33,788 nucleotides of DNA from an uncultured Chloroflexia bacterium (GTDB lineage Bacteria; Chloroflexota; UBA6077; JACCZL01). A model generated the notes under the pieces. It was given only the letters and a program-made list of their open reading frames with translations, was not told the origin of the DNA and searched no databases. The position numbers and the translations under genes were made by a program. This document shows positions 4,201-27,702 of this stretch, piece by piece. The stretch lies in NCBI GenBank assembly GCA_963765765.1, contig CAVXYC010000008.1, forward strand, positions 1-33,788. Reading direction: 5' to 3'. The first letter of the stretch is position 1. The number at the start of each line of letters is the position of its first letter.

Positions 4201-4938
4201 CTAATCAAATTCGGGCACCAATGTCTTTCCGTCGTCGGCCAATTTCAGGCATAAGCCCGTTTGATCCATGCCCACCTGGGCCGCTAGAACAAAGCGATTA
4301 CCGGCGAACTCCGGACCGGGCATGCGCTGTCGCGCTTCATCCGGAGCATCCTCGGTCGCGATCGCTGCGCCTGGTGAGATCACCACCACGCAGACGTCGT
4401 ACTCCTGCTCTTCCTGCGCTACCACCTTGGTGAAATAGCGCACAGCTTCCTTTGCAACCACGTACGAGCCCGAGCCGATGCGCCCACCGCCGCCGTAGAG
4501 ATTCACGATGTGACCCGAGCGTCGAGCCTCCATGAAGGGCACCGCGTGCTTGGTGCACAGAAACGTGCCGCCCAGCGCCGTATCGATGACGCGATCGAAA
4601 AAGCTCCGCTCCATGTCGCGGAATCGTGGCCAGTGCTGATTGCCCCAGTTGAGATGCGGCACGATAGCGGCGTTGTTCACCAGGACGTCGATGGCGCCAC
4701 GCTCACCGTTGACCCGCTCCATGAGTGCCTTGACCTGTCTCTCATCGCGGACATCGGTATGGACGGCCAGGACGTCACCGCCGAACTCGCTCAGCTCCTC
4801 GCGGGTGGACTCCAGACGGTCGTCTTCGATGTCGGCAATAGTGACCCGTGCTCCGGCCTCAACGAACGTGCGAGCGATCCACCGGCCGATGCCTTTAGCG
4901 CCGCCAGTGACAATCACACTCTGGCCATTAACACTCAT
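4201..4938 (-). CDS. SDR family NAD(P)-dependent oxidoreductase
   Basis: TGGAKGIG, NNAA and YVVAK (YxxxK) motifs. Overlaps the upstream gene by 4 nt. Confidence 0.9.
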   Translation of the reverse strand: MSVNGQSVIVTGGAKGIGRWIARTFVEAGARVTIADIEDDRLESTREELSEFGGDVLAVHTDVRDERQVKALMERVNGERGAIDVLVNNAAIVPHLNWGNQHWPRFRDMERSFFDRVIDTALGGTFLCTKHAVPFMEARRSGHIVNLYGGGGRIGSGSYVVAKEAVRYFTKVVAQEEQEYDVCVVVISPGAAIATEDAPDEARQRMPGPEFAGNRFVLAAQVGMDQTGLCLKLADDGKTLVPEFD

Positions 4939-6108: not shown

Positions 6109-7172
6109 TCATAGTCCGTAGAGCGCGCGCGCGTTGTCGTCCAGGAATTTACGCGCGGATTCGTGGCTCAGGCCGGCCACCTCGGACAGGTTCTGAAGGG
6201 CGTACACCTCGGTCGACGTGTCCGCGTGGCCATAATCAGTGCCAATGACCAGGTTTTCGTCGCCGACGTAGCTCATGATGTAGTCAAGATCGTCGTTCGT
6301 CTGACAGGTCACCCAGATACGGTTATCGCGCAGGATGTTCTCCTTCATCTGAATGTCGCGTCGCTCGAACCGACGCGAGAGATCCTTGATGACGTACGGA
6401 ATCCACTGCGCGCTGAGCTCGATGAAGCCCCAGCGGAGATTGGGAAACTGGTCGGGCAGTCGGCTTTCGCACACCACCTGGAATGCCCCGACTCCGATGA
6501 GCTTGAAGCGCGGAAATCCGTAGGAGTTAGGGAAAATCGACATAATGTCCGAGCTGCCATTGCCGGTATGCACGCAGATCGGCATATTTAGGTCGCTTGC
6601 TTCCTGCATACATCCGGTGGAAGTACGGATCGATGATCAGGCGGTTTTCTGTCTCGACGCCGCGCATGATCACCGCGCATGCGCCGTTGTCACGGGCCTT
6701 GTGAAGCTCTTCTATCGCCACGTCCATACTGAGCAGCGGTAGGACGGCGGCCCAGCGGAGACGGTTGTCGCTCTGGGACCAGATATCGGCCAGACAGCGA
6801 TTGTAGCTCTTGCACAGCGCTCGCTCTATGGCTGGATTGTCCGTCACAGGGTTGATGAAGATCGTTGGGAAGAGGATCTGCACATCGGTGCCGAGCTCAT
6901 CCATGTGTCGGATGCGAGCCGAGACATCGGTCAGATACTTCGACTCATCGGGCGTTGAGACCTTATCGGTGTGGGGGCCAACTCGCGCCTGCGTCAGGCC
7001 CGGGCCGCCCCGCCGGAAATATTCCACCATCGATGAGCCAGTACTCTTTGGGCTCACCGTTTGCGTCGGTCTCCGCCACTCGCACCGGCCGATACTGCCG
7101 ATCCGCGGGATCCAGATAACCCCACGTCTCGTCACATTCGACGATATGCGCATCCGAGTCGATCACCGTCAT
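6109..7172 (-). CDS. Amidohydrolase_2 family protein (decarboxylase/hydratase-like), two frameshifts (near 7000 and 6610)
   Basis: N-terminal MTVIDSDAHIVE, middle RIRHMDELGTDVQILFPT...CKSYNR, and C-terminal CVHTG...IGTDYGH lie in three consecutive frames. Confidence 0.85.
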
Positions 7173-7216
7173 GCTGGCCGCTCCGGTCGAAGGCGTCGTC
7201 GCCCTGAAGTACGAGC

Positions 7217-7244
7217 ATGCTAGATCGCGTCCCGGGGCTGTCAA
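7217..7244 (-). promoter_or_regulatory. Putative sigma70 promoter of the amidohydrolase/ABC operon
   Basis: TTGACA-16 nt-TAGCAT on the minus strand, about 45 nt upstream of the ATG. Confidence 0.5.
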
Positions 7245-7260
7245 GCGATTGGGGCGCCTC

Positions 7261-8768
7261 GGGTGTAACCAAAAGTTGTTGAAGAGCGGGTGGTGAGACC
7301 GGAGCGGATGCGCTAGGCTGCGAACGCGGATTCTCATGCCGAGGCGGCCGGGGCAGTGAGACGCCCCGGCCGCGAGGAAGGTCGCATGGACGCGGAGAAC
7401 CTTCCCGAGACGATTGTCGCACCGCTCGCCGCCTGTGCCCACCGCTTGGCGGCTTGGGCGCGCGCCCACCGCGATGCCTCTCTGACGGATCTCGAGCGCC
7501 AGGTCCAGACCGAGCTGCGCACCGTGGCCCCGACGCTGGTCGCCGGGATGATCGCGGCTACCCAGCGCAGTCTGGATCCCGGGCTCCAGCGCGACCGGTC
7601 CCGCTGTCCGGAGTGCGGCACGACCGCGCCCACGCACAGCTGGCGTTCCCGCCAGGTGGTCACGGTCTGCGGCCCGGTCCGCTGGTCGCGCCCGTGGGCG
7701 CACTGCCCGACCTGCCGCCACGGCTGGAGCCCGACCGACCGCACGCTGGGCCTCGCGCCGCACCAGCGCCTGAGCGGCCCGCTGCGCGCCTGGCTGGTCC
7801 GGCTGGGGGGCGCCACGGCGTTTGCCGAGGCCGCCGACCTGCTCGAGGACCTGACCGGCCTGGCCGTGAGTCCCGAGACGGTGCGCACCCAGACCGAGGC
7901 CGCCGGGGCCGCGCTCGATCAGGCTCAGCAGGCCGACCGCGCCACCGTCGAACGGACGCGGGCCCCGGCCGGGACGGTGGACGCCGCCCCGCACCAGCTG
8001 GTCGCTGAAACCGATGGCGTGCTGGTGCGCTTCAACGATGGCTGGCACGAAGTCAAACTCGGCGTGGTCGGCGGCTGGGATCCGGCTGCGCCCCGGAACG
8101 GCAGCGCTTGGAGGCCCCGAGTTACGTGGCGGCCCGCGAGCCGGTGGGGCCGTTCGCCGGGCGCTGGGGCGCCGAAGTGGCGCGGCGGGGCGGCCTGGAC
8201 ATCCTCGGCGTCGATGGCCCGGTCACCGGGCCCGGGCTGGCGAGGTTGCGGGCGGTTGTCGTGCTCGGCGACGGCGCGCGCTGGATCTGGACGGCGGCTG
8301 CGGAGCAGTTCGGCGAGCGTCTGGAGATTGTCGATTGGTACCACGCCAGCGAGCATGTCTGGACCGTGGCCCGGGCGGTCTTCGGCGCGGGCACCGCCGC
8401 GGCCGAGGACTGGGTCGCGGTGAGCCTCGGCGGGCTGTGGAGCGCCGGGGCTGCAGCGGTGCTGGCGCGCCTGCGGGAGCTCGTGCCGCCGACGGACGAG
8501 GCGCGCCGGGTGGTGGCCACGGAGCGCGGGTACTTCCAGAGCAATCGCCAGCGGATGCGGTATCCGGAGTTTCGAGCTCAGGGGCTGCCCATCGGGTCGG
8601 GCGCGGTGGAATCGGCCGCCAAACACCTCGTCCAGCAGCGGATGAAACGCCCCGGCTGCCGCTGGTCGGCCGCCGGAGGCCAATCGCTGGCCGTGCTCCG
8701 GGCCCACCACGCCACGCTCCATGCCCGGGCCGCCTAGGCCCCCAAACCCACAACTCTTGGTTACACCC
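7261..8768 (+). mobile_element. Insertion sequence, ISKra4/ISLre2-like (prokaryotic Mutator-type DDE)
   Basis: Terminal IRs GGGTGTAACCAAAAGTTGT (7261-7279) and ACAACTCTTGGTTACACCC (8750-8768), 18/19 match, enclose a transposase. GC is clearly higher than in the flanks. Confidence 0.88.
7386..8737 (+). CDS. ISKra4-like transposase, frameshift near 8095
   Basis: CPECG...CPTC zinc finger, ETDG, GDGARWIW, DWYHASEH and IGSGAVESAAK...RMK motifs. Confidence 0.87.
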
Positions 8769-8777
8769 CTTTGGCTG

Positions 8778-9298
8778 GGGTGTGCCCAGAACTTGTGCAA
8801 CGGTCACATGGCAAATGTAACAAGCAGACTACCGGAAGGTGGCGCGGATCAGGTACGGTGCGCGCCATCCTGAGTGTGATCCGCCAGGGCGTGGCCACAC
8901 CCCGGCGGATCTGAAAGGGCCCTCGAATGGAGTCGCCGAGCCTTCCCGACGCCATTGGCGCACCCGTCGATGCCTTCGTGCGCGATCGTCTCACCTGGGC
9001 CGTCAGCCACCGTGATGCGTATCTCGCCACCTTGGAGCCGGCCGGGTGTGACGGCCTCCACGGGCGATGGCGTGCGGTCGGGCGTGGCTCGGCTGCGGCG
9101 GGTGCTGGGGGATGGGGCGCGCTGGATCTGGACCGCTGCGGCCGTGCAGTTCGGCGAGCGCATTGAGATCGTCGACTGGTACCACGCCGCAGAGCATGTC
9201 TGGACCGTCGTCCGGGCGGTCTCTCGGGAAGACAGCCCGGCGGGGAGCGTCTGGGCGGAAGCAGCGTAGCCAAAATGTCACAAGTTCTGGGCGCACCC
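8778..9298 (+). mobile_element. Internally deleted non-autonomous ISKra4-like element (521 bp)
   Basis: IRs GGGTGTGCCCAGAACTTGTG (8778-8797) and CACAAGTTCTGGGCGCACCC (9279-9298), 19/20 match. The interior holds transposase scraps (MESPSLPDAI; LGDGARWIW...DWYHAAEHVW). Confidence 0.82.
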
Positions 9299-9363
9299 AG
9301 AACAATGGAATCGAAATTGCCAGTTATCTATTTCAAAGAGGGTAGAATGCGACGAGGCTCGAT

Positions 9364-9783
9364 TTGACCGAACGCTTGACCATTACGCGTCGCGCAACAT
9401 TTGCCGCTGCGCATCGCTTGTATCGCTCCGAATGGTCGGACGACCAAAACTCCGAAATCTTCGGTCCCTGCGCCAACCCGGGTGGTCATGGCCACAATTA
9501 CGTGCTGGAAGTAACTATTGGCGGACTTCTGGATGCCGATACCGGGATGATCGCGGACCTCAAATGGCTCAAGCAGGTAATGGAGCGGCACGTCATCGAT
9601 CTGGTCGATCATCGAAATTTGAATACGGACGTCGAGTTTCTCCGGGGACTTAATCCAACGGCCGAAAACCTGGCTTGCGCCTTCTGGCGCCGCCTCGTGG
9701 GAGCCGTGGCAGAGAAGGCTCAGCTCGTCCGAGTTGTGGTGATCGAGACCGAAAACAATCGTGCCAGCGTTGAGGAAATATGA
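9364..9783 (+). CDS. 6-pyruvoyl-tetrahydropterin synthase family protein (PTPS-II, biopterin-type motif)
   Basis: [18 protein letters not shown] (C-x5-HGH), [13 protein letters not shown] and ETENN motifs. Confidence 0.93.
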
Positions 9784-10430
9784 CGGTTGACAAGAGCAGG
9801 AAGCTGACTGGAAGCAATGGAGATGGATCTCGCGCGATTTCGCAATCGCTCGTCGAGGTAGGTAGGCTGGATGAGCGTCAGGAAGCACTCCAGCAATTGA
9901 CCCGCATGATGCTTCAGACTCTGGGAGAGGATCCCGAGCGGGATGGACTTCTTGACACGCCTCGACGTGTGCAGGAGAGCCTGCAGTTCCTCACGAATGG
10001 ATACGATGTAGATCCCGCCGATGTGGTAGGAGAGGCGCTCTTCAACGACAGTTACGATGAGATGGTGCTCGTTCGCGATATCGAGCTTTACAGCTTGTGC
10101 GAGCATCACATGCTGCCATTCTTCGGCAAGGCGCACATCGCCTACCTGCCCCGCGGAAGAGTCGTTGGACTGAGCAAGCTCGCTAGACTAGTGGACGTGT
10201 TTGCGCGCCGCCTGCAAGTCCAGGAGCGTCTCACGCGCCAAATTGCAGAGTCCATACAGGCTCTCCTTGACCCCGCTGGCGTGGGCGTGGTGATTCAGGC
10301 GAGCCATCTGTGCATGATGATGCGCGGAGTTCAGAAGCAAAACAGCAGCACGGTCACAAGCTGCCTACTGGGTGATTTTCGCGACGATCAACGCACCCGT
10401 ACGGAGTTCCTGGAGCTCGTCCGCAGCTAG
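9780..10430 (+). CDS. folE: GTP cyclohydrolase I
   Basis: [42 protein letters not shown] and HLCMMMRG motifs. ATGA overlap with the PTPS gene. Confidence 0.97.
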
Positions 10431-10443
10431 GGCTCCTGCGGGC

Positions 10444-11157
10444 TCAGGCGTTCGAGAGAATCTCGATGTTGGCGCCGGTCATTGGCCGAGATGCGTCGCT
10501 GGCTACAAAGACGATCGTTCGAGCGATGTCTTCAGGCGCCGCCAGCGCTCGCAGGCCGTGCCCGGCTTCGCGCAGCATCGCGGTCTCGACAGCGCCGGGG
10601 CTGACGGCATTCACGCGGATGTTGAATGGCTTGCCCTCCACGGCCAGAATGTCCGAGAGCGCGATGATGCCAGCCTTGGAGACGTTGTAAGCCGCAAGTC
10701 CCGGGAATTTCTCTGGCCCTCTGACCCCGCTAAGCGAGCCCAGATTGACGATGCTTCCGCCAGGAGGATCTTGTTGGCTCATCTGGTGGAAAGTCGCTCT
10801 CGAACAGAGATAGGCGCCACGGAGATTGACTGCCATAACGCGGTCCCACAGATCGGGCTCGAGATCCTGAATGGTTGCTCGGCCGAGCATCGCGGCGTTG
10901 TTGATCAGTATGTCTATCCGACCATGTTCGGCGACAGTCGAGCCGACCAGGCGTTGGACGAAGTCCGGGTCACTCACGTCTCCAACAATGCCCGTGAGTG
11001 AGGGGTGCTCGGCGGTGGCGAAACCTACTTCGGATTCGGTTCGCGCGCAGATGGACACGTATGCCCCAGCTTCCGCAAGCTGAATGGCTGTTGCCCGTCC
11101 AATTCCACGTCCGCCTCCGGTAACCATGGCTACTTTTCCGATGAGATCAGCCGTCAT
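10444..11157 (-). CDS. SDR family oxidoreductase (candidate sepiapterin/pterin reductase)
   Basis: TGGGRGIG, NNAA, NLGS and YNVSK motifs. CARTE after beta-2 suggests NADP(H). Specific function is inferred from context only. Confidence 0.88.
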   Translation of the reverse strand: MTADLIGKVAMVTGGGRGIGRATAIQLAEAGAYVSICARTESEVGFATAEHPSLTGIVGDVSDPDFVQRLVGSTVAEHGRIDILINNAAMLGRATIQDLEPDLWDRVMAVNLRGAYLCSRATFHQMSQQDPPGGSIVNLGSLSGVRGPEKFPGLAAYNVSKAGIIALSDILAVEGKPFNIRVNAVSPGAVETAMLREAGHGLRALAAPEDIARTIVFVASDASRPMTGANIEILSNA

Positions 11158-12269
11158 CTCTCCCTCTCTCTGATGGCATCGTAGAGGGAGCAGTAGCTGT
11201 CCACCATACGCCGCATACTGAAGTGCTCCTCGATTCGTTGTCGGCTGTTGCGTCGCTGGATGCGATCGAGCATCCGCACACGCAGCTGAAACTCGGCTCG
11301 ATCATCCGGCGTTACCAGCCAACCGGTTTCACCGTCTTGCACGACTTCGACCAGACCGCCTCGACGATAGGCAACAACTGGCGTACCGGTTGCCTGCGCC
11401 TCAATACCCACCAGCCCGAACGGCTCGTCCCAGGTGGACGGCATCAACACTCCACGGGCGTGTGACATCAGCTCCAGTAAGTCAGAGCGCGATTGCGGGC
11501 CAATGTAGCTTGCTCCAGTGTGCCTTCCGATGACTCTACTAATCTCCTTGTCAATCCTCACGCGCGGGGCGATGGCACGATCGAAATACTCGCGGTCATA
11601 TATCTCGCCGGCCAGGATGAGCGGCTGGTCCAGGGCCTCGGCGACATCGATGGCCTGATCCGGCCCTTTTTCTGGCGTGATGCGACCGGCAAACAACAGA
11701 TACCGACCCGGCGCTTCTTGAAATGGCACCCTTTCCAGATCCAGCCCAGGATAGATGGATTGACGAACCTGGATTCCCCTCTCACGCCACTGCTTTGCGC
11801 TGGCCTGCGAAACGGCCACATACGTAGCCGACGCCTGGACCGCGTGAGCCGCCTCGGTCACATCATCGTCAAGTGGAGGTAGGTGCAGTGTGTGGACTAC
11901 CGGTATTGGTAGATTGCTGAGCTGCAAGAAGCTTGGAGCATCGAACGCATGTCCGTGTGCAACGTCGATGCGGGAGGCGTTCGCCTCGAGCCAGATCCGA
12001 ATTCTGTGGAAAGCAGCAACTTGCTCCACCGTGTCGGTGCGCGGCTTAGGATGGCTGAAGTCAGCGGGCTTGAGCAGATCGGCGTCGATACCGAGTTCAG
12101 GAATCTCCGCCCCCCGCACCAAAGATCCATCGGCAGCAAGGACGGTTACCTGATGTCCGGCGGACAGGAGTCCGTGTGCCAGGTCAGCGACCACTGCCTG
12201 CGCACCGCCGAGAGGCGTGCGTTCATCGTGGATCACTGAAACAAGAGGGGCGACGAGAGCGAGGTGCAT
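11154..12269 (-). CDS. GT4 family glycosyltransferase (candidate pteridine glycosyltransferase)
   Basis: GG...LAHGLLSAGHQVTV, VHTLH, GRITPEKG and EPFGLVGIEAQATGTPVV (Ex7E) motifs. ATGA overlap with the SDR gene. Confidence 0.9.
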   Translation of the reverse strand: MHLALVAPLVSVIHDERTPLGGAQAVVADLAHGLLSAGHQVTVLAADGSLVRGAEIPELGIDADLLKPADFSHPKPRTDTVEQVAAFHRIRIWLEANASRIDVAHGHAFDAPSFLQLSNLPIPVVHTLHLPPLDDDVTEAAHAVQASATYVAVSQASAKQWRERGIQVRQSIYPGLDLERVPFQEAPGRYLLFAGRITPEKGPDQAIDVAEALDQPLILAGEIYDREYFDRAIAPRVRIDKEISRVIGRHTGASYIGPQSRSDLLELMSHARGVLMPSTWDEPFGLVGIEAQATGTPVVAYRRGGLVEVVQDGETGWLVTPDDRAEFQLRVRMLDRIQRRNSRQRIEEHFSMRRMVDSYCSLYDAIRERER

Positions 12270-12345
12270 GGGCCCGAGTCAGCGATTATCGCAGACTTCT
12301 GCTAGGCTTCGTTTCAGGAGCTACGTATCCAACGAAGGAGCCAAT

Positions 12346-12690
12346 ATGAGTGTCGATCTTGCCAGCAAAGTCTGCATTCCGTGCATGGGTGGCGTACCGC
12401 CGATGACCCGCGAGGAGATCGCTCCGCTTCTAGCTCAGGTGCCTGGCTGGGAAGTTCTGGACGATACGAAGCTCTATCGGTCCTTCACTTTCCCCGATTG
12501 GGTAGCTGCGCAAGCGTTCGTCGTTTCTGCCGGCGAGATCGCCGAGGAAGCCGGGCATCACCCAGACCTACTGCTACGTTGGGGCGAGGTTCGCGCGGAG
12601 ATTTATACCCACAAGATCAAGGGACTTGCCGAAGCGGATTTCATCCTAGCAGCCAAGTTAAGTCGGCTGTACGAGCAGCAGTCAAGTTAG
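12346..12690 (+). CDS. phhB: Pterin-4-alpha-carbinolamine dehydratase
   Basis: AEEAGHHPD, YTHKIKGLAEADFILAAK and N-terminal CIPC motifs. GAAGGAG RBS before ATG 12346. Confidence 0.93.
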   Translation: MSVDLASKVCIPCMGGVPPMTREEIAPLLAQVPGWEVLDDTKLYRSFTFPDWVAAQAFVVSAGEIAEEAGHHPDLLLRWGEVRAEIYTHKIKGLAEADFILAAKLSRLYEQQSS

Positions 12691-12810
12691 CGCTCAACAC
12701 AGGTAGTCAGCGCTCTAGCGCTTTTTAGTGGCATTTCGTTAATGATCTCGGTAGCAGCCTCAGCCAAATCATTGCCTGGCGCTCGTCGAAAGGGCCTAAA
12801 TCTCAGAGAA

Positions 12811-12849
12811 CAAACAGAGCCTCGGCCACACTGGCCAAGGCTCTGTTTG
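12811..12849 (-). terminator. Hairpin downstream of hsp20
   Basis: CAAACAGAGCCT...AGGCTCTGTTTG stem with inner GGCCA/TGGCC. Confidence 0.6.
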
Positions 12850-12874
12850 CTTAATTTCCGGATCGCTTTGGAGA

Positions 12875-13318
12875 CTAGCTCTCTGAGGTGATCTTGATCG
12901 CTCGCGGCTGGGAGTGCGCGGCCTTGGGCACATGTACCTTGAGCACACCGTCTCGATACGTCGCCTCGGCCTTCTCCGTATCGATTGCGGCGCCGAGCCG
13001 GAACGTTCGCCCCAACTTGGAGCTCTGCCACTCCTGGTGAACACTTCGGCTGCCTTCGGGGGCCGCTGAGCTCATTTCGCCCGAGACGGAGAGTACTCCA
13101 TTCTCGGCCGTGATCTGAATGCTCTCGGTGTCAAGGCCAGGGACGAGCAGCCACACGTGGTAACCGTCCGCATCCTCCCAGACGTTCGCCTGTCCCATCG
13201 GGCGATTGTATGTGCCTGTGGGGCTGTAAGTTGATGGGGTAAAGCTCTGTGCGAAGAGTCGATCCATCGCGTCGCGGAGCGACACCATCGGTCGATCCAT
13301 TGTCATGCTCTGTGGCAT
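12875..13318 (-). CDS. Hsp20/alpha-crystallin family small heat shock protein
   Basis: SLRDAMDRLF N-terminus, VPGL...GVLSVSGE, AEATYRDGVLKVHVPK and C-terminal I-x-I (RAIKI). Confidence 0.93.
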   Translation of the reverse strand: MPQSMTMDRPMVSLRDAMDRLFAQSFTPSTYSPTGTYNRPMGQANVWEDADGYHVWLLVPGLDTESIQITAENGVLSVSGEMSSAAPEGSRSVHQEWQSSKLGRTFRLGAAIDTEKAEATYRDGVLKVHVPKAAHSQPRAIKITSES

Positions 13319-13386
13319 TGTCACTATTCCTTCCGCCCTTACGGCTTGCGGGATCACTTCCCGCACTTCGTACCTTCATTCTCGAT

Positions 13387-13423
13387 TTCTAACGTTAGAA
13401 GGACATCAGAAAAACGTTAGGAC
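13387..13423. promoter_or_regulatory. Candidate regulator binding site: three 11-bp direct repeats plus a 14-bp palindrome
   Basis: AACGTTAGAAG / GACATCAGAAA / AACGTTAGGAC (13391-13423), and TTCTAACGTTAGAA (13387-13400). Confidence 0.5.
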
Positions 13424-13532
13424 TCGATCTGACGGACGTAGAGACTTTGTTAACGACGGTTGTTGCTCTGGAATGTCTCTTGCAACTGAGGCGTTAAGAG
13501 ATTGCCTACCCGCGACGGCCGGGAGTTAACCT

Positions 13533-14442
13533 ATGAGTTCCAAATCAGAACAGTCCGTTTACGTGGGTACCGCTGGTTGGTCTTATCCGCGCGGCGCGGG
13601 AGCCTGGGACGGCGTCTTCTATCCGCGCGGAATTGCGGATCGGGAGAAGCTCTCCTTCTATGCCCAGTACCTGGATGCAGTTGAGGTGAATTCGACGTTT
13701 TATCGACCTGTTGGCCCAGACACCACGCGAGCGTGGAGCGAACGGACCCCAGGAACTTTCCGGTTCAACGTAAAGCTCAATCAAAAGTTCACGCATCCGA
13801 AGATGTTCGAGGCCGCCACTGGCGAGGCGAAAGCCACAGACGAGACCGATGTGGCCGCTTTCAAGCGTGAGTCTCGAGCCGATCGCCTCAGCGGAAAAGC
13901 TCGGAGCGCTACTCGCGCAGTTCCCGGCCAGTTTTAAGTGCGAGCCGGCCAATCTGGAATATCTCGAGTCACTTATCCAGGAGTTTCGGGAATATCCGAT
14001 GAGCGTCGAGCTTCGTCACAGAGGCTGGACCGAGAGCCCGGAGACCGCCGAGCTTTTCAGAGAGTACGACGTCTCGTGGACGATGATCGATGAGCCGAAG
14101 TTCAAAACGTCGATCCGCCATGTGCCTCTGACCAGTCGACTCGGCTACTTCCGATTCCATGGTCGCAATTTCAAAGACTGGTGGCATGGAGATCGTGAGT
14201 CTCGCTACGACTATCTCTATTCGCCCTCAGAACAGGCACATCTTCAAGAAGATGTGCGGCAAGTCGCTGAGAAAGCTGACCTTACATTCGTAGTCTACAA
14301 CAATCACTTCGGTGGCAAAGCTATCGTGAACGCGATTGAGACCAAGCAGGCTTTGGGAGGCAGGATTCAGGCAGAGCTTCCGACTCCTCTCCTAGAGTTG
14401 AAGGAGCGATCCGTGGAGAAAGCCGAGAGCCGGGCACGCTGA
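13533..14442 (+). CDS. DUF72 (UPF0759/YecE) family protein, frameshift near 13870
   Basis: YVGTAGWSY, VEVNSTFY, LAQFPASF, VELRH, YFRFHGRN, RYDYLYS and YNNH motifs spread across two frames. Confidence 0.9.
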
Positions 14443-17277: not shown

Positions 17278-18048
17278 TTAGAGGTCCTTAGTAACCAGCT
17301 TGGTGTAGTACTGCCACACGCCGCCCACGCGAGGCGGGCTGTTGGGGTCAAGGAGCTCGGCAAATTGTGGTAGCTCATGGAGCTTAGCCCGCTCAGTCAT
17401 CTCGGCGATGCGATCGTCCTCAATGTAGGGATGGTCTGCGCCCATCGCGGCAAAGGCGTAGTAATTGAACCGCGCCTGCTCTTCGATCTGCAGCATCATC
17501 ATGACTGAGTCCTCCGGCGACTTGCCGGTGGTAGCGGCGCCATGACCGCGGAATAGCATGGCCGGTGACTTGCCCAGTAGGGTGGCTATCTCCATGCCCT
17601 CGGCATCGCTCTGGATCGTTTTCACGTGATCGTAGACCGGCAGCTCGTTCTTCACGAACTGAATGCCCTCCTGGCACATCGGGCGCAGCCGCTGGCGCAG
17701 GGTGGTCATGAGCACGACAAAGCGCGGATGTACGTGCGTCACTGAGAGCACATCCGGCCGAAGCTTATAGATGCACGAGTGCATCTTCACTTCGAAGCAC
17801 TGTGTGGTGCCGGGGGGGCCATCGACCTTGAAGCCCTCGCGGTCGCAGACGATCATGTCCTCCGGGCGCATCTCCGAGAGCGCGTCCAGCGCGTAGCCGC
17901 GTCCTTTGACCACGAATTTGTCCGGGTCTGAGGGGACCCGCATGCTGGTGTGACCGAGCGAGGCGAGTACGCCACTCGCGAGGCCCATCGCAGCCAGAAT
18001 TCTGTTAGCTACTGCTACCTCGTACTTGATATCATCGATTTCTGCCAT
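17278..18048 (-). CDS. Class II aldolase/adducin family protein (possible decarboxylase)
   Basis: GHTSMR, EVKMH, THVHP and RGHG metal-binding motifs. Confidence 0.9.
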
Positions 18049-18153
18049 TCCCCGTTAATCCTCCCCTTTGAAGTTACCCGCAGAGACGGCGGCATTATAC
18101 GGCAGAAGCGTGGCGTGGGCGGCGTTGCTCGGCATCTGAGAAGGACGGACTTC

Positions 18154-19347
18154 ATGCTTCGTATCGACGATTTGCACGTCTACTATCAGGGAGATCGTGG
18201 TCTGGTGCATGCGGTTCGGGGCGTCAGCTTCGAGGTTGCGCAGGGCGACTTCTTCACGTTACTTGGTCCGTCAGGATGCGGCAAGACGACCACGCTTCGG
18301 AGCGTAGCCGGGCTCGAGACACCGACTTCAGGTCGCATCACTATTGGCGACACGGTTGTGTTCGATAGCGACGGTGGCATCGACGTAAAGACGCCCAAGC
18401 GAGAGATCGCCATGGTGTTCCAGAGCTACGCAATCTGGCCGCACATGTCTGTGTTTGAAAACGTGGCATTCAGCCTTCGCCACGGTCGAAAAAAAACACC
18501 CAGCTCTGAGATCAAGCCCAAGGTTATGAATGCGCTCAGCCTTGTGCAGCTGCAGGACTACGCTGATCGGCCGGCCCCACAGCTCAGCGGCGGCCAGCAG
18601 CAGCGTGTTGCTCTTGCTCGCGCGGTTGCCTGCGAGCCGCAGCTCCTACTCCTGGATGAGCCGCTCAGTAACCTGGATGCTCGCCTTCGCGAGGAGATGC
18701 GGAACGAGCTTCGGGACTCGTCACGCGGCTCAATATGACCGCGCTTTACGTAACACACGATCAGGTCGAAGCGCTCTCGATGTCTGATCGGCTGATCGTC
18801 ATGTCGGATGGAGCGATTATCCAGGAGGGTACGCCAGCCGACGTGTATCTGAATCCGAACAGTGAGTTCTCTGCGAACTTCCTGGGACGAGCAAACGTTG
18901 TTCGCGGAACAGTGAAAGAGCTGAGCTCAGATCGACAGGGCACCGTAGTGACCGCTGGGGGAACGCTCAACTGTATGATCCCATCAGTGGGCGGCTGATA
19001 ACCTGGACGTGTTGATCGCATTCCGCCCAGAGGCCGTGACCATCGCTCGCCAGCAGATGGAAGGCATTAACGCGCTTCGAGGCGATGTGGTGAGCGTCAC
19101 GTTCGTCGGCGATGCCGTGGAGTACGTCATTAACGTGGGCGGCATGGAGGTTCGCGTCAAAGGCGAGCCATTTGACGCCGCCACGGTTGGTGAGACTATT
19201 TGGCTCCGGGTGCCACCAACCCGATGCCTTGTGATCGCCGACGGCGCGAACGTTCCCGGTCGCCGCCTAAAGTCCGTTGGTAGTGCGGAGCCATATTCCG
19301 CACTACCAGTTCTCCCTAAGCGACAGTTGACCGAATTTGCTCAATAA
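18154..19347 (+). CDS. ABC transporter ATP-binding protein, frameshifts near 18720 and 18990
   Basis: [27 protein letters not shown], then YVTHDQ and a TOBE-like tail in subsequent frames. Confidence 0.88.
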
Positions 19348-19519: not shown

Positions 19520-20872
19520 CTACGACTGACCAACCAGCTTTCGTCTCTCCTCAGCATCCGCGCCGCCTTCGACGCCGCGCTGGTTGAGGATCGGGCTGTA
19601 TTTGCTAGCCATACCTTGACGCTGGAAGCCCATCTGACCCATGCCCGTGCCGCCAACGTCGGCTGCGTTGCGCTCCTTAGCGAGATGCGCCGGGAACTCA
19701 GTCACCATGCCGTGGTAGACGTTCTCCTCAGGGTTTCGCCAGGTATTCATCGGGTCCTTGCCTTCCTCGACGAGCTTGATATTCTCCTCGAGCATCTGGC
19801 GGAACTGGATGATGCCGACGTCGGAATGGCCTAAATGCTCCGACTCGCGATCGGAGATTTCACCCTGTGTGATCCACGCGGCAACGTCCTGAGCGGAGTT
19901 GCTGTCAAGAATCTCCCAGCGCGGCTGACCCTCCTCGTTGAGCTCGATGACCGGCGGCGAGAAGAACGGGATGTCTTCGAAGCGCTGCTCCGGTTCATTC
20001 GCGTCCTTGTCGTGCGTCATGAACCACCAGTGGGCGGTGTGCGTGTCATCGATCGGCACGCGAATCTGCACTGCCGGCCCGGTCATCACCCACTTGGAGC
20101 GATCGAACCCGTCGCCGCCCTGGCGCAGGAAGTACGGGAAGATGATCGGGTGACCCTCAGACCAGGACGTGTCGGCCTCGGACCCGCCCTTCATGACGCG
20201 GCGCTTGTAAATGCCGTAGTCGAACCTGGTGAACCCAATCTTTTCATGGCGCCGGATCTTTCGATCGGACCCGGGCTCGCCACGCATCTCGAGGATGAAG
20301 TTCGACCAGTATCCGTGCAGCCACTCCAGATGCACTGGATCCAGCGAGTTCTCCTGGGCCTGCAGCCAGTTGCACGGGAGCACGGACATGCCGATATCGC
20401 GAACAACATTGTCGATCGCCAGGAAGTCCCAATTGGGGATCAGTGGTGCGGGCTGTGGCCCCATGTACGTGAAGATGAGCCCAGCCTTCACCTCAACCGG
20501 ATATGCCTTGACCTTGACTCGGTCCTTGTAGCCGGAGTCGGGATCGACGGTCTCTTCGTAGGGCTGCTCGATGCACTGGCCGGTTTCGTCCATAACCCAG
20601 CCGTGATACGGGCATCGAAGTCCGGATTCCTCGGGGATCCCGTAAATCATGCCCATGCGGCGGTGCGGGCAGAGCGGATCGATGAGGCCGAACGTCCCGG
20701 AACGATCCTTGTACAGAACTAGATCCTCGCCAAGGAGGCGGATCTTCATCGTGTACTTGTCATTCATCTGCGACACGGCGGCCACAGGATGCCAGTAGCG
20801 GCGCATAAGCTCGCCGCATGGAGTTCCTGGGCCAACCTTTGAAACTCGCTCATTTTGTTCGACGCTGAGCAT
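19520..20872 (-). CDS. Rieske non-heme iron oxygenase subunit (phthalate 4,5-dioxygenase/LigXa-like), paralog 1
   Basis: VGPGTPCGELMRRYW, CPH...CPYH Rieske motif, ENSLDPVHLEWLH and QD iron ligands. Start set at ATG 20872 after GGAGG, matching the paralog. Confidence 0.93.
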   Translation of the reverse strand: MLSVEQNERVSKVGPGTPCGELMRRYWHPVAAVSQMNDKYTMKIRLLGEDLVLYKDRSGTFGLIDPLCPHRRMGMIYGIPEESGLRCPYHGWVMDETGQCIEQPYEETVDPDSGYKDRVKVKAYPVEVKAGLIFTYMGPQPAPLIPNWDFLAIDNVVRDIGMSVLPCNWLQAQENSLDPVHLEWLHGYWSNFILEMRGEPGSDRKIRRHEKIGFTRFDYGIYKRRVMKGGSEADTSWSEGHPIIFPYFLRQGGDGFDRSKWVMTGPAVQIRVPIDDTHTAHWWFMTHDKDANEPEQRFEDIPFFSPPVIELNEEGQPRWEILDSNSAQDVAAWITQGEISDRESEHLGHSDVGIIQFRQMLEENIKLVEEGKDPMNTWRNPEENVYHGMVTEFPAHLAKERNAADVGGTGMGQMGFQRQGMASKYSPILNQRGVEGGADAEERRKLVGQS

Positions 20873-20956
20873 CGAGCCCTCCCACACCAGGGTGCCGCGG
20901 TTACCCGCGATCATCTCCAATTGTGCCATTCGCACACGATAATGTCGAGGGGCAGC

Positions 20957-22478
20957 GGGTGCGCCTCAAACTTGTGACAGGGTGGCTGGACGGGAGCGGA
21001 GTGATGGGTGATGGGAGGTGTCGTGGCTGAGCGGTAATGCGCGACACTCCGGAGAGATGGGAATGGCCTTCCGGGAAGCGCCCACGCTCGGAAGGGCGCT
21101 GAAAGGACCGCCGACGATGGACAGGTCAGCCTTCCCGCTATTGTTGCACCATCGATACCTTCGTGCGCGACCTCATTGCTTGGGCCACCCAGCATCGCGA
21201 TGCCGATCTCGCTATGATCGAAACGGTGGTGCGCGACATCTGCGCGCGCTGGCACCGCAGCTCGTCGGCGGGATGATCAGCGTCACCCGACGCGACCTGA
21301 TCCGGCCAGCAACGCGATCGGCCCGGTGCGCGGAGTGCGGCGCGCTTGGGCGCGTGCGCGGCTGGCGGCGACGGCAGTTGCAGACCACCTGTGGACCGAT
21401 CCAGTGGGAGCGGCCTGGGCTCAGTGCTGGGCCTGCCCGGCAGTGCTGGAGTCCGACCGATCGCACGCTCGGCGTGCCGCCGCAGCAACGCAGCAGCACC
21501 AGCCTCCAGGCATGGCTGGTGTCCTGGGCACGCTGCTGCCCTTCGCCACGGCCGGTGCGCAGCTCGCCACGTTGACCGGCGTGCGGGTGAGTGCCGAGAC
21601 GCTGCGCCGCCTCACCGAAGCCGCCGGCCAGGCGCTCGACGCCCAGCTCCAGGAGGACGCCGCCACGGTGGACCGGACCAAGGGCCGCGTCGGCCCAGTC
21701 GATCCGGCTCCGGACCAGCTGGTGGCGGAGACCGATGGCGTGCTGGTGCGCTATCGAGACGGGTGGCATGAGGTGAAACTGGCGGTGGTGGGCGGGTGGA
21801 ACGCGGACCTGCCGCGCGAGCAGCAGCGCCTGCGTGCGCCGAGCTACGTAGCGGCGCGCGCCGGACGGGATGCATGGGGTCGGCGCTGGGGCGCGGAGGT
21901 GGCGCGCCGCGGCGGGTTGGAGGAAGTCAGCTACGCGGGCAGTGGCGTGAGCCCGGGCATCGCCACGCTGCGGCGGGTGCTGGTGCTGGGGGACGGGGCG
22001 CGCTGGATCTGGACCGCCGCGGCGGAGCACTTCGGGGAGCGGATGAGATCGTTGACTGGTACCACGCCAGTGAGCACCTCTGGACGGTGGCGCGGGCGGT
22101 CTACGGCGAGGGGACGACGGCGGCGACGGCCTGGGCGGAGGCGAGTCTCACGGTGCTGTACGAGCAGGGCGCCGCGCGGTTCCTGGAGCGCCTGCACGAT
22201 CTGACGCCCGCGACGGAGGCGGCCCGGGCGACGGTGGCCACCGAGCGCGGGTACTTCCAGACCAATCGGGCACGGATGGCCTACCCGGCGTTTCGGCCAC
22301 CGGCTATCCGATCGGCTCGGGCGCGGTGGAATCGAGCGCGAAGCATGTCATCCAGCAGCGGATGAAGCGTGCCGGCTGCCGCTGGTCCGAGCGCGGCGGG
22401 CAGGCGCTGGCCGTCTTGTGTGCCCACCATGCCACCGCCACCGCCACATAACCAAATACTCAAGTTTGGGTGAACCGC
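20957..22478 (+). mobile_element. Degenerate ISKra4-like insertion sequence
   Basis: Left end GGGTGCGCCTCAAACTTGTG and right end CTCAAGTTTGGGTGAACCGC form an imperfect IR around a transposase homologous to 7386-8737. Confidence 0.75.
21117..22451 (+). pseudogene. ISKra4-like transposase with several frameshifts
   Basis: CAECG, ETDGVLVRYRDGWHEVK, GDGARWIW, DWYHASEH and ...ESSAK...RMK motifs spread over multiple frames. Confidence 0.82.
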
Positions 22479-22538: not shown

Positions 22539-23864
22539 CTAGACGGTGCTAGCCTCCGCTTCCTGGAGCTTGATCTCAATGGATTCCATAGGTTTCACGC
22601 TGCCGCGCCGATCCAGGATCGGGCTGTACTTGGTCGCGGCGCCCTGGCGTGCCAGCGTATCCGCGTATCGCGGCCCGTGACTCGTCTCGGTGCGCATCCA
22701 CAGATACTGGTTCTTCTCCGGATCGCGGAAGGTGTTCATCGGGTCCTTGCCTTCTTCGACGAGCTTGATGTTCTCCTCGAGCATCTGGCGGAACTGGATG
22801 ATGCCAATGTCGGAGTGACCGAGGTGCTCACCGGAGCGATCCGAGATCCTACCCTGGGTGATCCAGGCCGCGGGGTCCTGCGCAGAGTTGCTGTCCAATA
22901 GCTCCCAACGCGGTTGGTCATTCTCGTCGAGCTGCGGTACAGGAACCGAATAGAACGGAATGTCTTCCGGTCGCTGGACCTCCTCACCTTCTACCATTGG
23001 GTAGCTGGCCACGTACCAGTGCGCCGTGTTGTAGTCATCGATCGGAGTGCGGATCTGGAACGCCGGGCCCATTAGGCCGAAGGCATCCGGGGCGCCATCA
23101 CCTGAGCCGCCCTGACGGAGCATGTTGGGGAAGACGATGGGATGTCCGTCTTTCCAGGCGGTGTCCTCCTTGCTTCCGCCCTCAACGACGCGGCGCTTGT
23201 ACATGCCGTACTCAAAAGCGTCGAAGCCGATCTCCGTATGCTTCTTGGCACGGAGCGGAGGACGATCCTCGCCCAGCATTTCAACGATAAAGTTGGTCCA
23301 GACTGAGTGCAGCCACTCAAGATGGACAGGATCCAGCGAGTTCTCCTGGCACTGGAGCCAGTTGCAATCAAGATGGGCGTAGCCAATGTCACGTACGACG
23401 CCATCCTTCGTGAAGACGTCCCAGCGGGGCAGAAGCGGAGCCGGCGAAGGCCCCATGTAGGTGAAAAGCAGTCCCGCCATCTCCTGGATCGGGTAGGCCT
23501 TGACCTTGATCTTGTCCTTGTAGCCGGCGTCAAGATCTACGGTCTCTTCATATGGCTGCTCGATGCACTGGCCGGTCTCGTCCATGATCCAGCCGTGGTA
23601 AGGACAACGCAGGCCAGACTCTTCTGGAATGCCGTAGATCATTCCCATGCGCCGATGCGGGCACAGCGGATCGATGAGGCCGTATGTACCAGAGCGATCT
23701 TTGTAAAGGACGAGGTCCTCGCCCAAGATGCGGATCTTCATCGTGTATTTGTCGTTCATCTGCGAAGCAGCGGCCACCGGATGCCAGTAACGGCGCATAA
23801 GCTCGCCGCACGGCGTTCCAGGACCTACTCGCGCGAGACGATCATTCTGCTCAACACTCAGCAT
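22539..23864 (-). CDS. Rieske non-heme iron oxygenase subunit, paralog 2
   Basis: Same Rieske and mononuclear iron motifs as paralog 1. AAGGAG RBS. Confidence 0.94.
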   Translation of the reverse strand: MLSVEQNDRLARVGPGTPCGELMRRYWHPVAAASQMNDKYTMKIRILGEDLVLYKDRSGTYGLIDPLCPHRRMGMIYGIPEESGLRCPYHGWIMDETGQCIEQPYEETVDLDAGYKDKIKVKAYPIQEMAGLLFTYMGPSPAPLLPRWDVFTKDGVVRDIGYAHLDCNWLQCQENSLDPVHLEWLHSVWTNFIVEMLGEDRPPLRAKKHTEIGFDAFEYGMYKRRVVEGGSKEDTAWKDGHPIVFPNMLRQGGSGDGAPDAFGLMGPAFQIRTPIDDYNTAHWYVASYPMVEGEEVQRPEDIPFYSVPVPQLDENDQPRWELLDSNSAQDPAAWITQGRISDRSGEHLGHSDIGIIQFRQMLEENIKLVEEGKDPMNTFRDPEKNQYLWMRTETSHGPRYADTLARQGAATKYSPILDRRGSVKPMESIEIKLQEAEASTV

Positions 23865-23969: not shown

Positions 23970-26900
23970 TTAGGTCCTCTGTGTTCCTTCGGACAGGCTG
24001 ATGGCCTCCTTCATGACCTCGGAGCTCCGCAGGCTATCGCGCAACCTCTCGTCGGTGATCTTGCTCACGGTTCCCTGGAGTAGGCCCAGAGCTTTCTCCG
24101 CCTCCTGTTGTGATGCGTCAGCCTGGCCAAGGTCGGCGAACACTCGCGACAGGCCGAGATGGAGCCGCCAGCGCGCAGGCTGGGCGTGCCAGGCTGTCGC
24201 TTGCTCTAGCCCTGCGCTGAGAACCTGGACGCCCTCGTCCGATCGTCCCAGTCGCGACAGCGCTAGCCCTGCAACGTAAGCGATGTCCAGCCCCCACACT
24301 TCCATGCCCCGGGCGTTGCTCATCACGTGATTCGCCAGGTCATACGCTTGTTGAAACTGGCCGCGTTGGAGTGCCAAACGGGCCATCTCGATGCTCGCGG
24401 CGAACGTGCCCATGTCGAATCCCGACCCGAGCTCGAGTGCCCGCCCAAGGAATGATGATCCTTCCTCCCGCTCCGAGGACTGGCAGAGCGTTCCACCGAG
24501 CTCGGAATAGCCCAGGGCAATCCAGATCGTTGCCTGTAGTGATGTCGCGACGCGGACAAGCTCGCGATGGTGAATAACTGCGTCGTCGAGCAGCTCGCAT
24601 GCCCGGTAAACACGCCCGAGCTGCCAGTGTCCCATGCACTGCCACTCGAGGTGCGAGATCCGCTGCGCTATCGCGAGTCCTTCACGACCATGGTCCAGGG
24701 CTAGCTGGAACTCGCCAAACGGCTCGGCAGCCTCGGCAATGCAGCTATGGGCGAACGAAATCCCGCTGACGGAACCCATCTCCGTCCAGGTGCTCAGGGC
24801 GTACTGCACCCATTCCAGGCCGGGCAGCATAATCGCCCATAATTGACACGCTGATTCCATGCAGGGCCGCGCACGACGCCTCAGTCCAGCGATCGCCGGT
24901 CGCGCGTAGACGAACCATGGCCTCGTGGCTGTATTCCACGGCCGCATGCGTGTGGCCGAAGACAAAGCTGGCCATGCCAAGAAGATCGAGCGTCTGGGCT
25001 TCGCCATCGTCGTCATTGAGTGAGCGGAAGATCGCGAGTGCCGCTTCGAGCTGGTCGCGGGTGCTGGCTTCACGATTCAGGTTCAGCAAAACGGTGGCAA
25101 CTCGCACGTGAGCCTGAGCCAGCTCGCGCGGAGTGTTGGCGCGGCTGGCGATCTGAACGGCCGTTTGGGCCAGTCGCAAGCCCTCTTCATAGTCACGGTG
25201 TCCCGACCAAAGCATGGCCAGAGATCCCACGATCTGTGCTTCCGCAACTGCGTCGTTCAGCTCCGCGGCGAGCGCTCGTGCGGCCTCGAGATCTGTCTGC
25301 GCCGCCTCGAAATCCCCGAGGTCCTTTGTCACCTCAGCGCGTTGTCGCAGCACCCGCATGCGCAGCTCCGCGGGGCGAGTCACCCGCTCCAGAAGATCGA
25401 TGGCCGCGCTGAGATGAGTAAGCGCCTCGCGATTGGCGAATGCCGAGCGAGCGACTTCGGCAGCCGCCAGAGTGTGCTCGAGCGCTTGATCCCATTCCTC
25501 AGCTCGTTCGTAATGAAAAGCCAGGATCGGCCGAAGTGTCTCCAGTCGGTCAACATACAACTCCGTGAGCGCCTCTGCCACAAGATTGTGCAGCTCTCGG
25601 CGGCGACGCAGTAGCAACGTGCTGTAGGTGGCCTCCTGAACAAGGATGTGCTTGAAGCCGTACTCACGCTCTGGGATAGTGGCCAGCTCGCGAACCAGGT
25701 CGGCACGCTGTGCCTGGACCAGGTGTTCGTCAAGCGCGGCATCCTCTGCTATGCGGCTCAATACGCGATGGCCGAATTGACGACCAATGACCGATGCCGT
25801 TTGAAGTGCCACGCGCGCTTCCCCCAGCCGATCCAGGCGGGCGATTATCAGGCCCTGGAGTGTGTCGGGAATCTCCAGATGCTTGAGATCCACGGCTCCG
25901 TCTTCCCCGGACGAGCCGACCACTCCGCGTTCCTGGAGGGTGCGAATCAACTCTTCGAGCCATAGAGGTGTACCCGCTGCTCGGTCCAGCAGTGAGTGGA
26001 CAGAATCCGGAAGCTGGGTGGCGCCGAGAAGTCCCGAGGCTAGCTCCCTGGCAGCGTCACTCGTCAGCGGCTGCAGGTTGATCTCGGTGTATCGATGCGG
26101 CAGGTAACGCGCCGCGTGCTCACGTAGCTGCCAGATAGGCGCATCGCGCTCCGGCCGAAACATAAGACACAACATTATTGGCACTCGTTCGGTGACGATA
26201 AGCAAGTCGGTAAGAAGCTGCACCGAGCTTGGATCCGCCCAGTGGAGATCATCAATCTCTACCACTGCGGGACGATTGCCCATCGCCTCCTCCAGCAGCC
26301 TCTGGACGACTGCCAGGCCCACCTGGGCAGCCTCGGCTGCGCTGATCTCGGCGTCGGTGGGCTCCGTTGCCGCGCTGGCGAGGCCTAGCACTCGCGCGAC
26401 CAACGGTCGTTTGTCCCCGAATCCCAGGGCGTCACTCCTGCTCAGTATCTCCTCGTCCGGATTCGCCTGAGGCACTTCCATTTGAGCGCACAGCTGCGCC
26501 AGAACAGAGCGGGTTACGGAATGACTCGAAGTATCCAGATGAGCCAGAGCGGCGGCTCGCCACCATGTGAGGTCGCCCGAGGCTGCCCGCGCTTCGGAGA
26601 CCAGTCGGGACTTGCCGAGCCCGGGGTCGCCGATGATGGCCAGGACCTGGCCACGCCCACGACGCAAATCGGTCAATCGATTCAGGAACGTCTCCATCTC
26701 GTCCGTTCGTCCCACGAAAGGACTGGAGTGGCCAAGCTCGGAGCTCACGGGGGCGGAGTCATTCTGAACTATCCACCCAGGTATAGGCTCGGCTTTGCCC
26801 TTCAAAAACAGCGGCTCAACTGGCGTGAGCGACATCGTCCGTCGAACGTGTCGCTTTGCGTTGGGCCCGATTATCACCGTGCCTGGCTCCGTGGCACTCT

Positions 26901-27543: not shown

Positions 27544-27702
27544 GTGCGTCACTCAGCATGCCAGTGTAGCAGGCATCTCCTTGTCTTTAGCCCAACTGAC
27601 TCACGTTAGTTCCATGATTTTTGACTGGCCATTCCGAATTGGCATGGAAGCTGCGCGTTCCGCGTTATTCATCCGCGATAGGAGCCATCAGGAGGAATGG
27701 AT

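Follow-up and report, generated by a model that had tools for sequence, protein, structure and literature searches.

The window analysed here is a 33,788-nucleotide (nt) stretch of contig CAVXYC010000008.1 (assembly GCA_963765765.1) from an uncultured Chloroflexia bacterium. At positions 9364-12690 it carries five contiguous genes, coding for 6-pyruvoyl-tetrahydropterin synthase (PTPS), GTP cyclohydrolase I (FolE), a short-chain dehydrogenase/reductase (SDR), a glycosyltransferase (GT) of family GT4, and pterin-4a-carbinolamine dehydratase (PCD). By itself, this locus probably encodes every step from GTP to a glycosylated tetrahydropterin of the biopterin type, together with one recycling enzyme. 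Its host is of a soil-type Chloroflexota lineage, and the core of the cluster recurs in many other non-photosynthetic bacteria. A first-pass annotation of the window had proposed a single-locus pathway for a tetrahydrobiopterin (BH4) glycoside; the proposal finds support in the protein families and their motifs, in the subgroup to which the GT belongs, and in the linkage of GT, PTPS and SDR genes in 53 of 80 related loci, with the product itself predicted from sequence.

The most likely product is a glycosylated biopterin-type tetrahydropterin; which sugar it carries, which cofactor the SDR prefers, what physiological role it has, and all substrates and products are inferred. In the proposed sequence of reactions, FolE would convert GTP to 7,8-dihydroneopterin triphosphate, which PTPS, an enzyme of the PTPS-II type, would turn into 6-pyruvoyl-tetrahydropterin. 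The SDR, probably NADPH-dependent, would reduce both side-chain carbonyls to give a tetrahydrobiopterin, acting as a non-orthologous stand-in for sepiapterin reductase. The GT would then glycosylate a hydroxyl of the side chain with a nucleotide sugar as donor, in the manner of BGluT in Synechococcus. PCD would act on the 4a-hydroxy form of the pterin, which may arise either through use by an oxygenase or through reaction with oxygen species; dehydration would yield the quinonoid dihydro form, ready for re-reduction.

The neighbourhoods of related GT genes were compared in a sample of one genome per species, scanned with an alignment of the GT. From at least 599 stretches we retained 80 loci with GT relatives of 29-47% identity; closer genome loci may exist beyond these 80. 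Partner genes were sought in them by tblastn with the window proteins (E <= 1e-5). Co-conservation of GT and SDR with PTPS, on which the first-pass annotation had let its proposal depend, is borne out by this comparison: PTPS is found in 55 loci, SDR in 56, and both in 53. The two loci L035 and L055 lack SDR, and their contigs stop right past the GT. The distance between PTPS and GT has a median of 778 nt and does not exceed 1108 nt; between SDR and GT the median is 223 nt and the maximum 1271 nt. When all open reading frames (ORFs) of the loci were clustered without bias, the GT itself was followed in frequency by PTPS and a single SDR family, each in 54 loci, and then by a class I S-adenosylmethionine (SAM)-dependent methyltransferase (41 loci) and a ferredoxin-reductase-like flavoprotein (32 loci). 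The carriers belong to Chloroflexota (Ktedonobacteria and Chloroflexia), Actinomycetota (Solirubrobacterales, Streptosporangiaceae and Acidimicrobiales) and Dormibacterota.

PTPS (9364-9783, forward strand, 139 amino acids) starts with TTG, 6 nt downstream of a GAGG, and matches the Pfam family PF01242 with an E-value of 1.1e-32 (113 bits, against a cut-off of 22.4). The AAHRL, HGH, DHRNL and ETENN blocks, which we take to have zinc-binding and catalytic roles, are conserved in alignments with animal PTPS structures. The best matches in PDB are human 3I2B (1.8e-29), 2G64 and rat 1B66, and the human, worm (C. elegans) and rat enzymes together span 1.8e-29 to 8.7e-28. The HGH block is part of the motif C-ANPGG-HGH, i.e., Cx5HGH; among COG0720 proteins, CxxxxxHGH is the signature of PTPS-II, CxxxHGH of QueD and ExxHGH of PTPS-III (PMC5041015, PMC5445326). 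The earlier assignment of this protein to PTPS-II agrees with both the motif and the closest solved relatives, and is a prediction of the same kind.

It could be argued that the role of PTPS and FolE lies in making queuosine or folate, with QueD or a FolB-replacing PTPS-III as the identity of the COG0720 protein, and that SDR, GT and PCD are unrelated neighbours. Bacterial proteins of COG0720 are indeed mostly QueD or PTPS-III and not true PTPS (PMC5041015), and the window protein matches the QueD model with an E-value of 3.6e-18. However, its score with this equivalog model, TIGR03367, is 65.7 bits, under the cut-off of 89.25, and its motif is neither that of QueD nor that of PTPS-III. Among solved structures it is closest to animal PTPS (about 1e-28 to 1e-29), whereas QueD structures match far more weakly in the PDB sequence search, at the 1e-5 level (about 2e-5), and no queC, queE, queF, folK or folP gene is found in the window. 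We regard this explanation as very improbable.

The gene for FolE (9780-10430, forward strand, 216 amino acids) follows that for PTPS. Its product matches PF01227 with an E-value of 2.5e-77 and passes two curated models, TIGR00063 (267.8 bits, cut-off 181.6) and NF006825 (275.3 bits, cut-off 174). The best PDB match is GTP cyclohydrolase 1 37xd (238 bits), with the rat, human and Thermus enzymes at about 234-236 bits and E. coli FolE at 127. The CEHH and HLCMMMRG blocks, which are the CEHH/Cys zinc-site blocks, are kept in alignment with GTP cyclohydrolase 1.

The SDR (10444-11157, reverse strand, 237 amino acids) is a classical member of its superfamily (PF00106, E-value 3e-49). In an alignment of 16 sequences, the elements of the classical machinery, TGGGRGIG, NNAA, S141/S143 and Y157-x3-K161, are invariant or nearly so. 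The SDRs linked to GT genes form one subfamily as judged by their sequences: the signature SLSGx4EKFxGx3YxxSK is present in the cluster SDR of the window and in 53 of the 56 GT-linked SDRs, and is absent from the second SDR encoded in the window (4201-4938). The GT-linked SDRs match the cluster SDR with a median of 139 bits and the second SDR with 61.6 bits, the cluster SDR scoring higher in 56 of 56 loci. We predict that the cluster SDR is a functional analogue of 6-pyruvoyl-tetrahydropterin/sepiapterin reductase, a role to which the gene context points.

The GT (11154-12269, reverse strand, 371 amino acids) has the GT-B architecture, with matches to PF00534 (1.5e-23) and PF13439 (2.7e-16). 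Its top solved match is the glucosylsucrose synthase TeGSS (7FG9/8X3Q; E-value 4e-38, residues 2-366), with the BH4 glucosyltransferases BGluT (5ZE7/5ZER; 1.4e-29, over residues 21-355) and 9V0L (2.7e-24) coming after it. A profile built from 25 GT homologues scores TeGSS at 209 bits, BGluT at 169.5 and 9V0L at 167.5, and the next structure, an unrelated one, falls to 88; residues E282, E290, R196 and K201, which belong to the donor site, and G21-G22 are invariant in these 25 proteins. These comparisons place the GT in a narrow subgroup of GT4 with representatives of both activities, BGluT and glucosylsucrose synthase. Among 120 listed homologues, 11 have already been annotated by JGI as "UDP-glucose:tetrahydrobiopterin glucosyltransferase". 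We regard the GT as a predicted pteridine glycosyltransferase, with context supporting sugar transfer to a reduced pterin.

PCD (12346-12690, forward strand, 114 amino acids) matches PF01329 with an E-value of 3.2e-27 (94.9 bits, against a cut-off of 26). Its best PDB match is 2EBB (1.1e-11), and the HHP and TH blocks are conserved in comparison with 2EBB and 1USO. A regular-expression search places the pattern E-x3-HHP-x5-W-x9-H-x8-D, presumably the catalytic motif of the family, in the protein.

Closer relatives of the window genes were found by protein searches, with homologues that are 60-69% identical to the window protein for GT, 70-81% for SDR and 86-96% for PCD. Every organism-named close homologue of the GT and the SDR is from Chloroflexota, in line with the earlier guess that the host was probably a member of this phylum. 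Two metagenome-assembled genomes (MAGs), both of Chloroflexota, have consecutive accessions for SDR, GT and PCD: HEX3245398, HEX3245399 and HEX3245400 on a 7854-nt contig (81, 66 and 87% identity, respectively), and MFN0070530, MFN0070531 and MFN0070532 on a 29933-nt contig (77, 60 and 86%). Further homologues come in pairs on contigs of equal size, GT with PCD at 1651 nt, SDR with PCD at 4358 nt, and GT with SDR at 1984, 2111, 2158, 2483, 5263, 16490 and 23080 nt; the equal sizes suggest, and do not prove, that the members of a pair share one contig. Conservation of PCD in this neighbourhood is thus a feature of the lineage to which the window belongs and does not extend to the wider family.

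Several observations weigh against a complete pathway to a BH4 glycoside at this locus. A scan of 31 other ORFs of the window revealed no enzyme known to depend on pterins, aromatic amino-acid hydroxylases included. PTPS falls below the cut-off of the PTPS/QueD family model TIGR00039 (78.3 against 125.5 bits), and PCD below those of the NCBIfam equivalogs NF002019 (96.3 against 137) and NF002017 (77 against 80). The first-pass annotation had counted FolE and PCD as members of the cluster; elsewhere this is partly true of FolE, which is near the GT in 10 of the 80 loci, and not true of PCD, which is near it in none of the 80, though next to it in the two MAGs just mentioned. Both are lineage-specific additions. 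In 22 of the 80 loci there is neither PTPS nor SDR; among these, L015, L057, L065, L066, L071 and L078 are unjudgeable, with a locus under 5 kb or the GT at a contig edge, and 13 belong to a distant GT clade (Saccharimonadota, Planctomycetota and others). A quick tree of the GTs puts the window in a clade of five rows (SH-aLRT 98), together with L001, L002, L003 and L006, and in none of these four loci do PTPS or SDR occur within 8 kb. The nearest genome GT, with 47% identity, is that of L001 (a Limnocylindria MAG, 7983-10583), where FolE and an ORF carrying a RibD_C (reductase) domain come after the GT, perhaps as a separate pterin pathway that supplies a GT of this type.

The relationships of the GT count on the same side. 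Its nearest characterised relative is TeGSS, a UDP-glucose:sucrose glucosyltransferase (PMC9909042), and not a pteridine glycosyltransferase; TeGSS is ahead of BGluT with the single sequence (134.5 against 106.5 bits) as well as with the family profile. Because the subgroup contains both activities and TeGSS is the closer of the two, the acceptor is not fixed by sequence alone. The earlier description of the protein as a pterin glycosyltransferase is accordingly sustained as regards the BGluT subgroup, and weakened by the greater closeness to glucosylsucrose synthase. One may then suppose that the GT is no pterin enzyme at all, that it glycosylates a sugar or other small molecule (e.g., a compatible solute) as TeGSS does, and that its pterin neighbours are uninformative. 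This would fit the order of the scores and the absence of PTPS and SDR near the four nearest GTs in species-representative genomes, and likewise near the 13 more distant ones. But the GT is tied to PTPS and SDR in the 53 loci that contain both, which come from three phyla; it shares a 4-nt overlap with the SDR in the window, and overlaps or abuts PTPS or SDR in related loci. Moreover, no sucrose-phosphate synthase or other sugar-metabolism partner adjoins the GT in the window, whereas in T. elongatus the glucosylsucrose synthase gene adjoins that for sucrose-phosphate synthase (PMC9909042). On balance, we find a GT unconnected with pterins to be improbable.

Doubts of a similar nature apply to the SDR. 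It reaches no NCBIfam model cut-off, and no sepiapterin or dihydropteridine reductase is found among its best solved matches, taken as the best 60 of 251 in the sequence search and the best 60 of 607 with the 16-sequence profile, so that a weaker match may exist. The protein appears to be no orthologue of any known sepiapterin reductase, either animal or from Chlorobium tepidum, and is generic by sequence. Its earlier identification as a sepiapterin reductase therefore stands as far as context is concerned, with linkage to PTPS in the same 53 loci, and fails as regards membership of a known family.

Dihydropteridine reductase and the pteridine reductases are themselves SDRs. In particular, PruA and PTR1 have been described as such (PMC13259868). 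This makes it conceivable that the cluster SDR serves in recycling, as a partner of PCD with dihydropteridine or pteridine reductase activity, and that 6-pyruvoyl-tetrahydropterin is reduced by an enzyme encoded elsewhere, or that the GT uses a different 6-substituted pterin. The lack of a sequence tie between the SDR and known sepiapterin reductases is compatible with such a role, as is the order of SDR, GT and PCD as the three consecutive genes in the two MAGs. The best 60 solved matches, however, hold no dihydropteridine reductase either; the 53 loci pair the same SDR subfamily with PTPS and GT where PCD is absent; and, without a reductase, the product of PTPS would have no onward step at the locus. 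A recycling role for the SDR is unlikely, though somewhat less so than a GT foreign to pterins, and would be a variant of the pathway proposed here.

The loci of the wider family fall into two versions, which differ in the PTPS motif and in the accompanying genes. The 54 GT-linked PTPS genes comprise 14 with Cx5HGH and 40 with Cx3HGH. A methyltransferase is missing next to 12 of the 14 Cx5HGH genes, all 12 of them in SDR-PTPS-GT operons of Chloroflexota with no other partners, and accompanies 37 of the 40 with Cx3HGH. In the window, PTPS has the Cx5HGH motif, and homologues of the methyltransferase and flavoprotein partners found in related loci are absent. Its gene order, GT then SDR and PTPS then FolE, is also seen in L059 and L070, where FolE is beside PTPS. 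In a quick tree of PTPS, the window groups with L059, L068 and L070 (support 89, subject to a long-branch warning), and the Cx3HGH forms are nested among the Cx5HGH forms, with at least two changes between them.

A simple operon of the Cx5HGH kind, SDR-PTPS-GT, is present in the cultured Ktedonobacter sp. SOSP1-85 (L011:6856-9131, NZ_BNJI01000001.1). In Ktedonobacteria (e.g., L010:2978-5867), the region upstream of this operon repeatedly contains genes for a DUF4388 protein, in 9 loci, and for an aldehyde dehydrogenase, in 8. The version of Actinomycetota and Dormibacterota (37 loci, e.g., L038:6528-11118, L019 and L048) consists of a Cx3HGH PTPS, a class I SAM-dependent methyltransferase, the GT and an SDR of the same subfamily, often with the addition of a ferredoxin-NAD reductase-like flavoprotein. 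By the published motif rule, Cx3HGH PTPS proteins would be QueD, yet they are 42-56% identical to the window PTPS and miss the QueD cut-off.

The arrangement of the five genes in the window is largely as described in the first-pass annotation: the ORFs are found in the order PTPS, FolE, SDR, GT, PCD, and Pfam and NCBIfam assign them to the families named above. PTPS-FolE and GT-SDR are two converging gene pairs, each translationally coupled, and both overlaps reported earlier are confirmed at 4 nt (9780-9783 for PTPS and FolE, 11154-11157 for GT and SDR). The FolE stop codon (10428-10430) and the SDR stop codon (10444-10446) leave the 13-nt convergent gap already noted (10431-10443). The longest ORF for PCD opens at GTG 12217 and would overlap the GT; NCBIfam profiles for PCD align only from residue 44, and ATG 12346 has GGAG 6 nt upstream. 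For these two reasons, the start is placed at ATG 12346; with this start PCD is divergent from the GT, as had been claimed, and separated from it by an intergenic region of 76 nt (12270-12345). Since the Pfam matches span nearly the whole profiles, the five pterin genes are intact, in contrast to other genes in the window, which are broken by frameshifts.

A promoter scan gave no sigma-70-like sites, including in the 76-nt spacer between GT and PCD. Three terminator-like sites were found, which is not above the shuffled expectation of 2.2; there is none in the 13-nt gap between FolE and SDR, and one lies directly after PCD (12709-12722). No Rfam match to a regulatory RNA was seen, at E up to 1 in 8800-13500.

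Elsewhere in the window, three diverged copies of an ISKra4-family transposase element (6963-9279 and 21326-22435) are 61-85% identical over repeated segments and have about 71% GC, against about 59% for the window; the copy at 7356-8737 is broken into two frames, and a fragment at 8955-9279 stops about 85 nt upstream of the PTPS start. Genes split between frames code for a DUF72 protein (two overlapping ORFs, 13533-14442), an ABC ATPase, separated from its TOBE domain (17950-19347), and an amidohydrolase beside the insertion sequence (6109-7153); these may be pseudogenes or the result of indel errors in the assembly. The third ISKra4 copy sits between two paralogous genes for Rieske/LigXa-C-like oxygenases (19520-20935 and 22539-23864), whose products are 69% identical. 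A related Rieske oxygenase gene is directly upstream of the GT in L006; with homologues in just 2 of the 80 loci, a link between these oxygenases and the pterin genes was rejected as coincidence. Further along, 24745-27552 codes for a 935-amino-acid signalling protein with zinc ribbons, an adenylate/guanylate cyclase domain, an AAA ATPase domain and TPR repeats.

Several characterised systems resemble the proposed pathway in part. The same sequence of reactions would be followed in the BH4-glucoside pathway of Synechococcus sp. PCC 7942, which consists of FolE, PTPS-II, a sepiapterin reductase activity and BGluT (5ZE7/5ZER) (PMC3546692, PMC5041015); PTPS-II has CxxxxxHGH in both, and the homology between the window GT and BGluT extends over almost the entire protein. 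Unlike Synechococcus, the window host is a member of Chloroflexota and has all steps in one locus together with PCD, and its GT is in a clade separate from BGluT and scoring higher to TeGSS. A non-cyanobacterial case is CtPGT of Chlorobium tepidum, a GT-B enzyme that acts with a UDP-sugar on tetrahydrobiopterin, the product being L-threo-biopterin N-acetylglucosaminide (PMC5683033). No CtPGT chain is recognisable among the solved GT matches, so the likeness to it is one of description, and the window enzyme may differ from it in donor, stereochemistry and linkage. TeGSS (tll1591 of Thermosynechococcus elongatus) shares with the window GT the retaining GT4 fold and the E-x7-E region, but its acceptor is sucrose (PMC9909042), and it has sucrose-phosphate synthase as its genomic neighbour where the window GT and its relatives in 53 loci have PTPS and SDR. 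Finally, animals synthesise and regenerate BH4 with GCH1, PTPS, sepiapterin reductase, PCD/DCoH and dihydropteridine reductase. The window's FolE is nearer to its animal counterparts than to E. coli FolE, its PTPS is nearer to the animal enzymes than to QueD, and a PCD with the HHP and H active-site blocks is likewise present. What the window lacks in comparison with the animal system is an orthologue of sepiapterin reductase, a recognisable dihydropteridine reductase and a hydroxylase that depends on pterin; what it adds is a glycosylation step.

Pteridine glycosyltransferases have been established experimentally in cyanobacteria and in Chlorobium tepidum (PMC5683033, PMC4133829, PMC3546692). 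Biopterin is described as rare in bacteria and archaea in a 2026 review (PMC13259868), and about 50 bacterial genomes were estimated to hold the BH4 pathway (PMC5041015). Earlier studies of COG0720 gene neighbourhoods listed just FolE and Nudix around PTPS-II (PMC5445326). Neither the present cluster nor a pterin glycoside from Chloroflexota, Actinomycetota or Dormibacterota was found described in a literature search whose coverage mostly excluded subscription journals. Chemistry and enzymology of the proposed type are already known; of greater interest is the wider family to which the locus belongs.

Taken together, the observations allow a broader and tentative interpretation, which we consider possible and distinctly less likely than the pathway itself. 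The window would be one of many widespread, undescribed pterin-glycoside loci in non-phototrophic Terrabacteria (Chloroflexota, Actinomycetota and Dormibacterota), with three components at their core: a GT of the BGluT/glucosylsucrose synthase subgroup, a PTPS, and an SDR from a new subfamily, acting as non-orthologous sepiapterin reductase. Fixation of PCD beside the GT in the lineage of the window would mean that the glycoside functions as a redox cofactor with a 4a-hydroxy state in its cycle, either with an oxygenase or as a scavenger of oxygen species, rather than as a pigment. The actinobacterial version, with its Cx3HGH PTPS, SAM-dependent methyltransferase and ferredoxin-reductase-like flavoprotein, would make a chemically different, methylated pterin.

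If the locus works as proposed, biopterin-type glycosides would extend well beyond phototrophs, into common soil lineages that include the cultured Ktedonobacter mentioned above, which would argue against a purely photosynthesis- or light-related role of these compounds. The same loci would offer tractable organisms for testing and a candidate gene for the missing bacterial reductase step, and a recycling enzyme, PCD, would be genetically tied to a glycosylated pterin.

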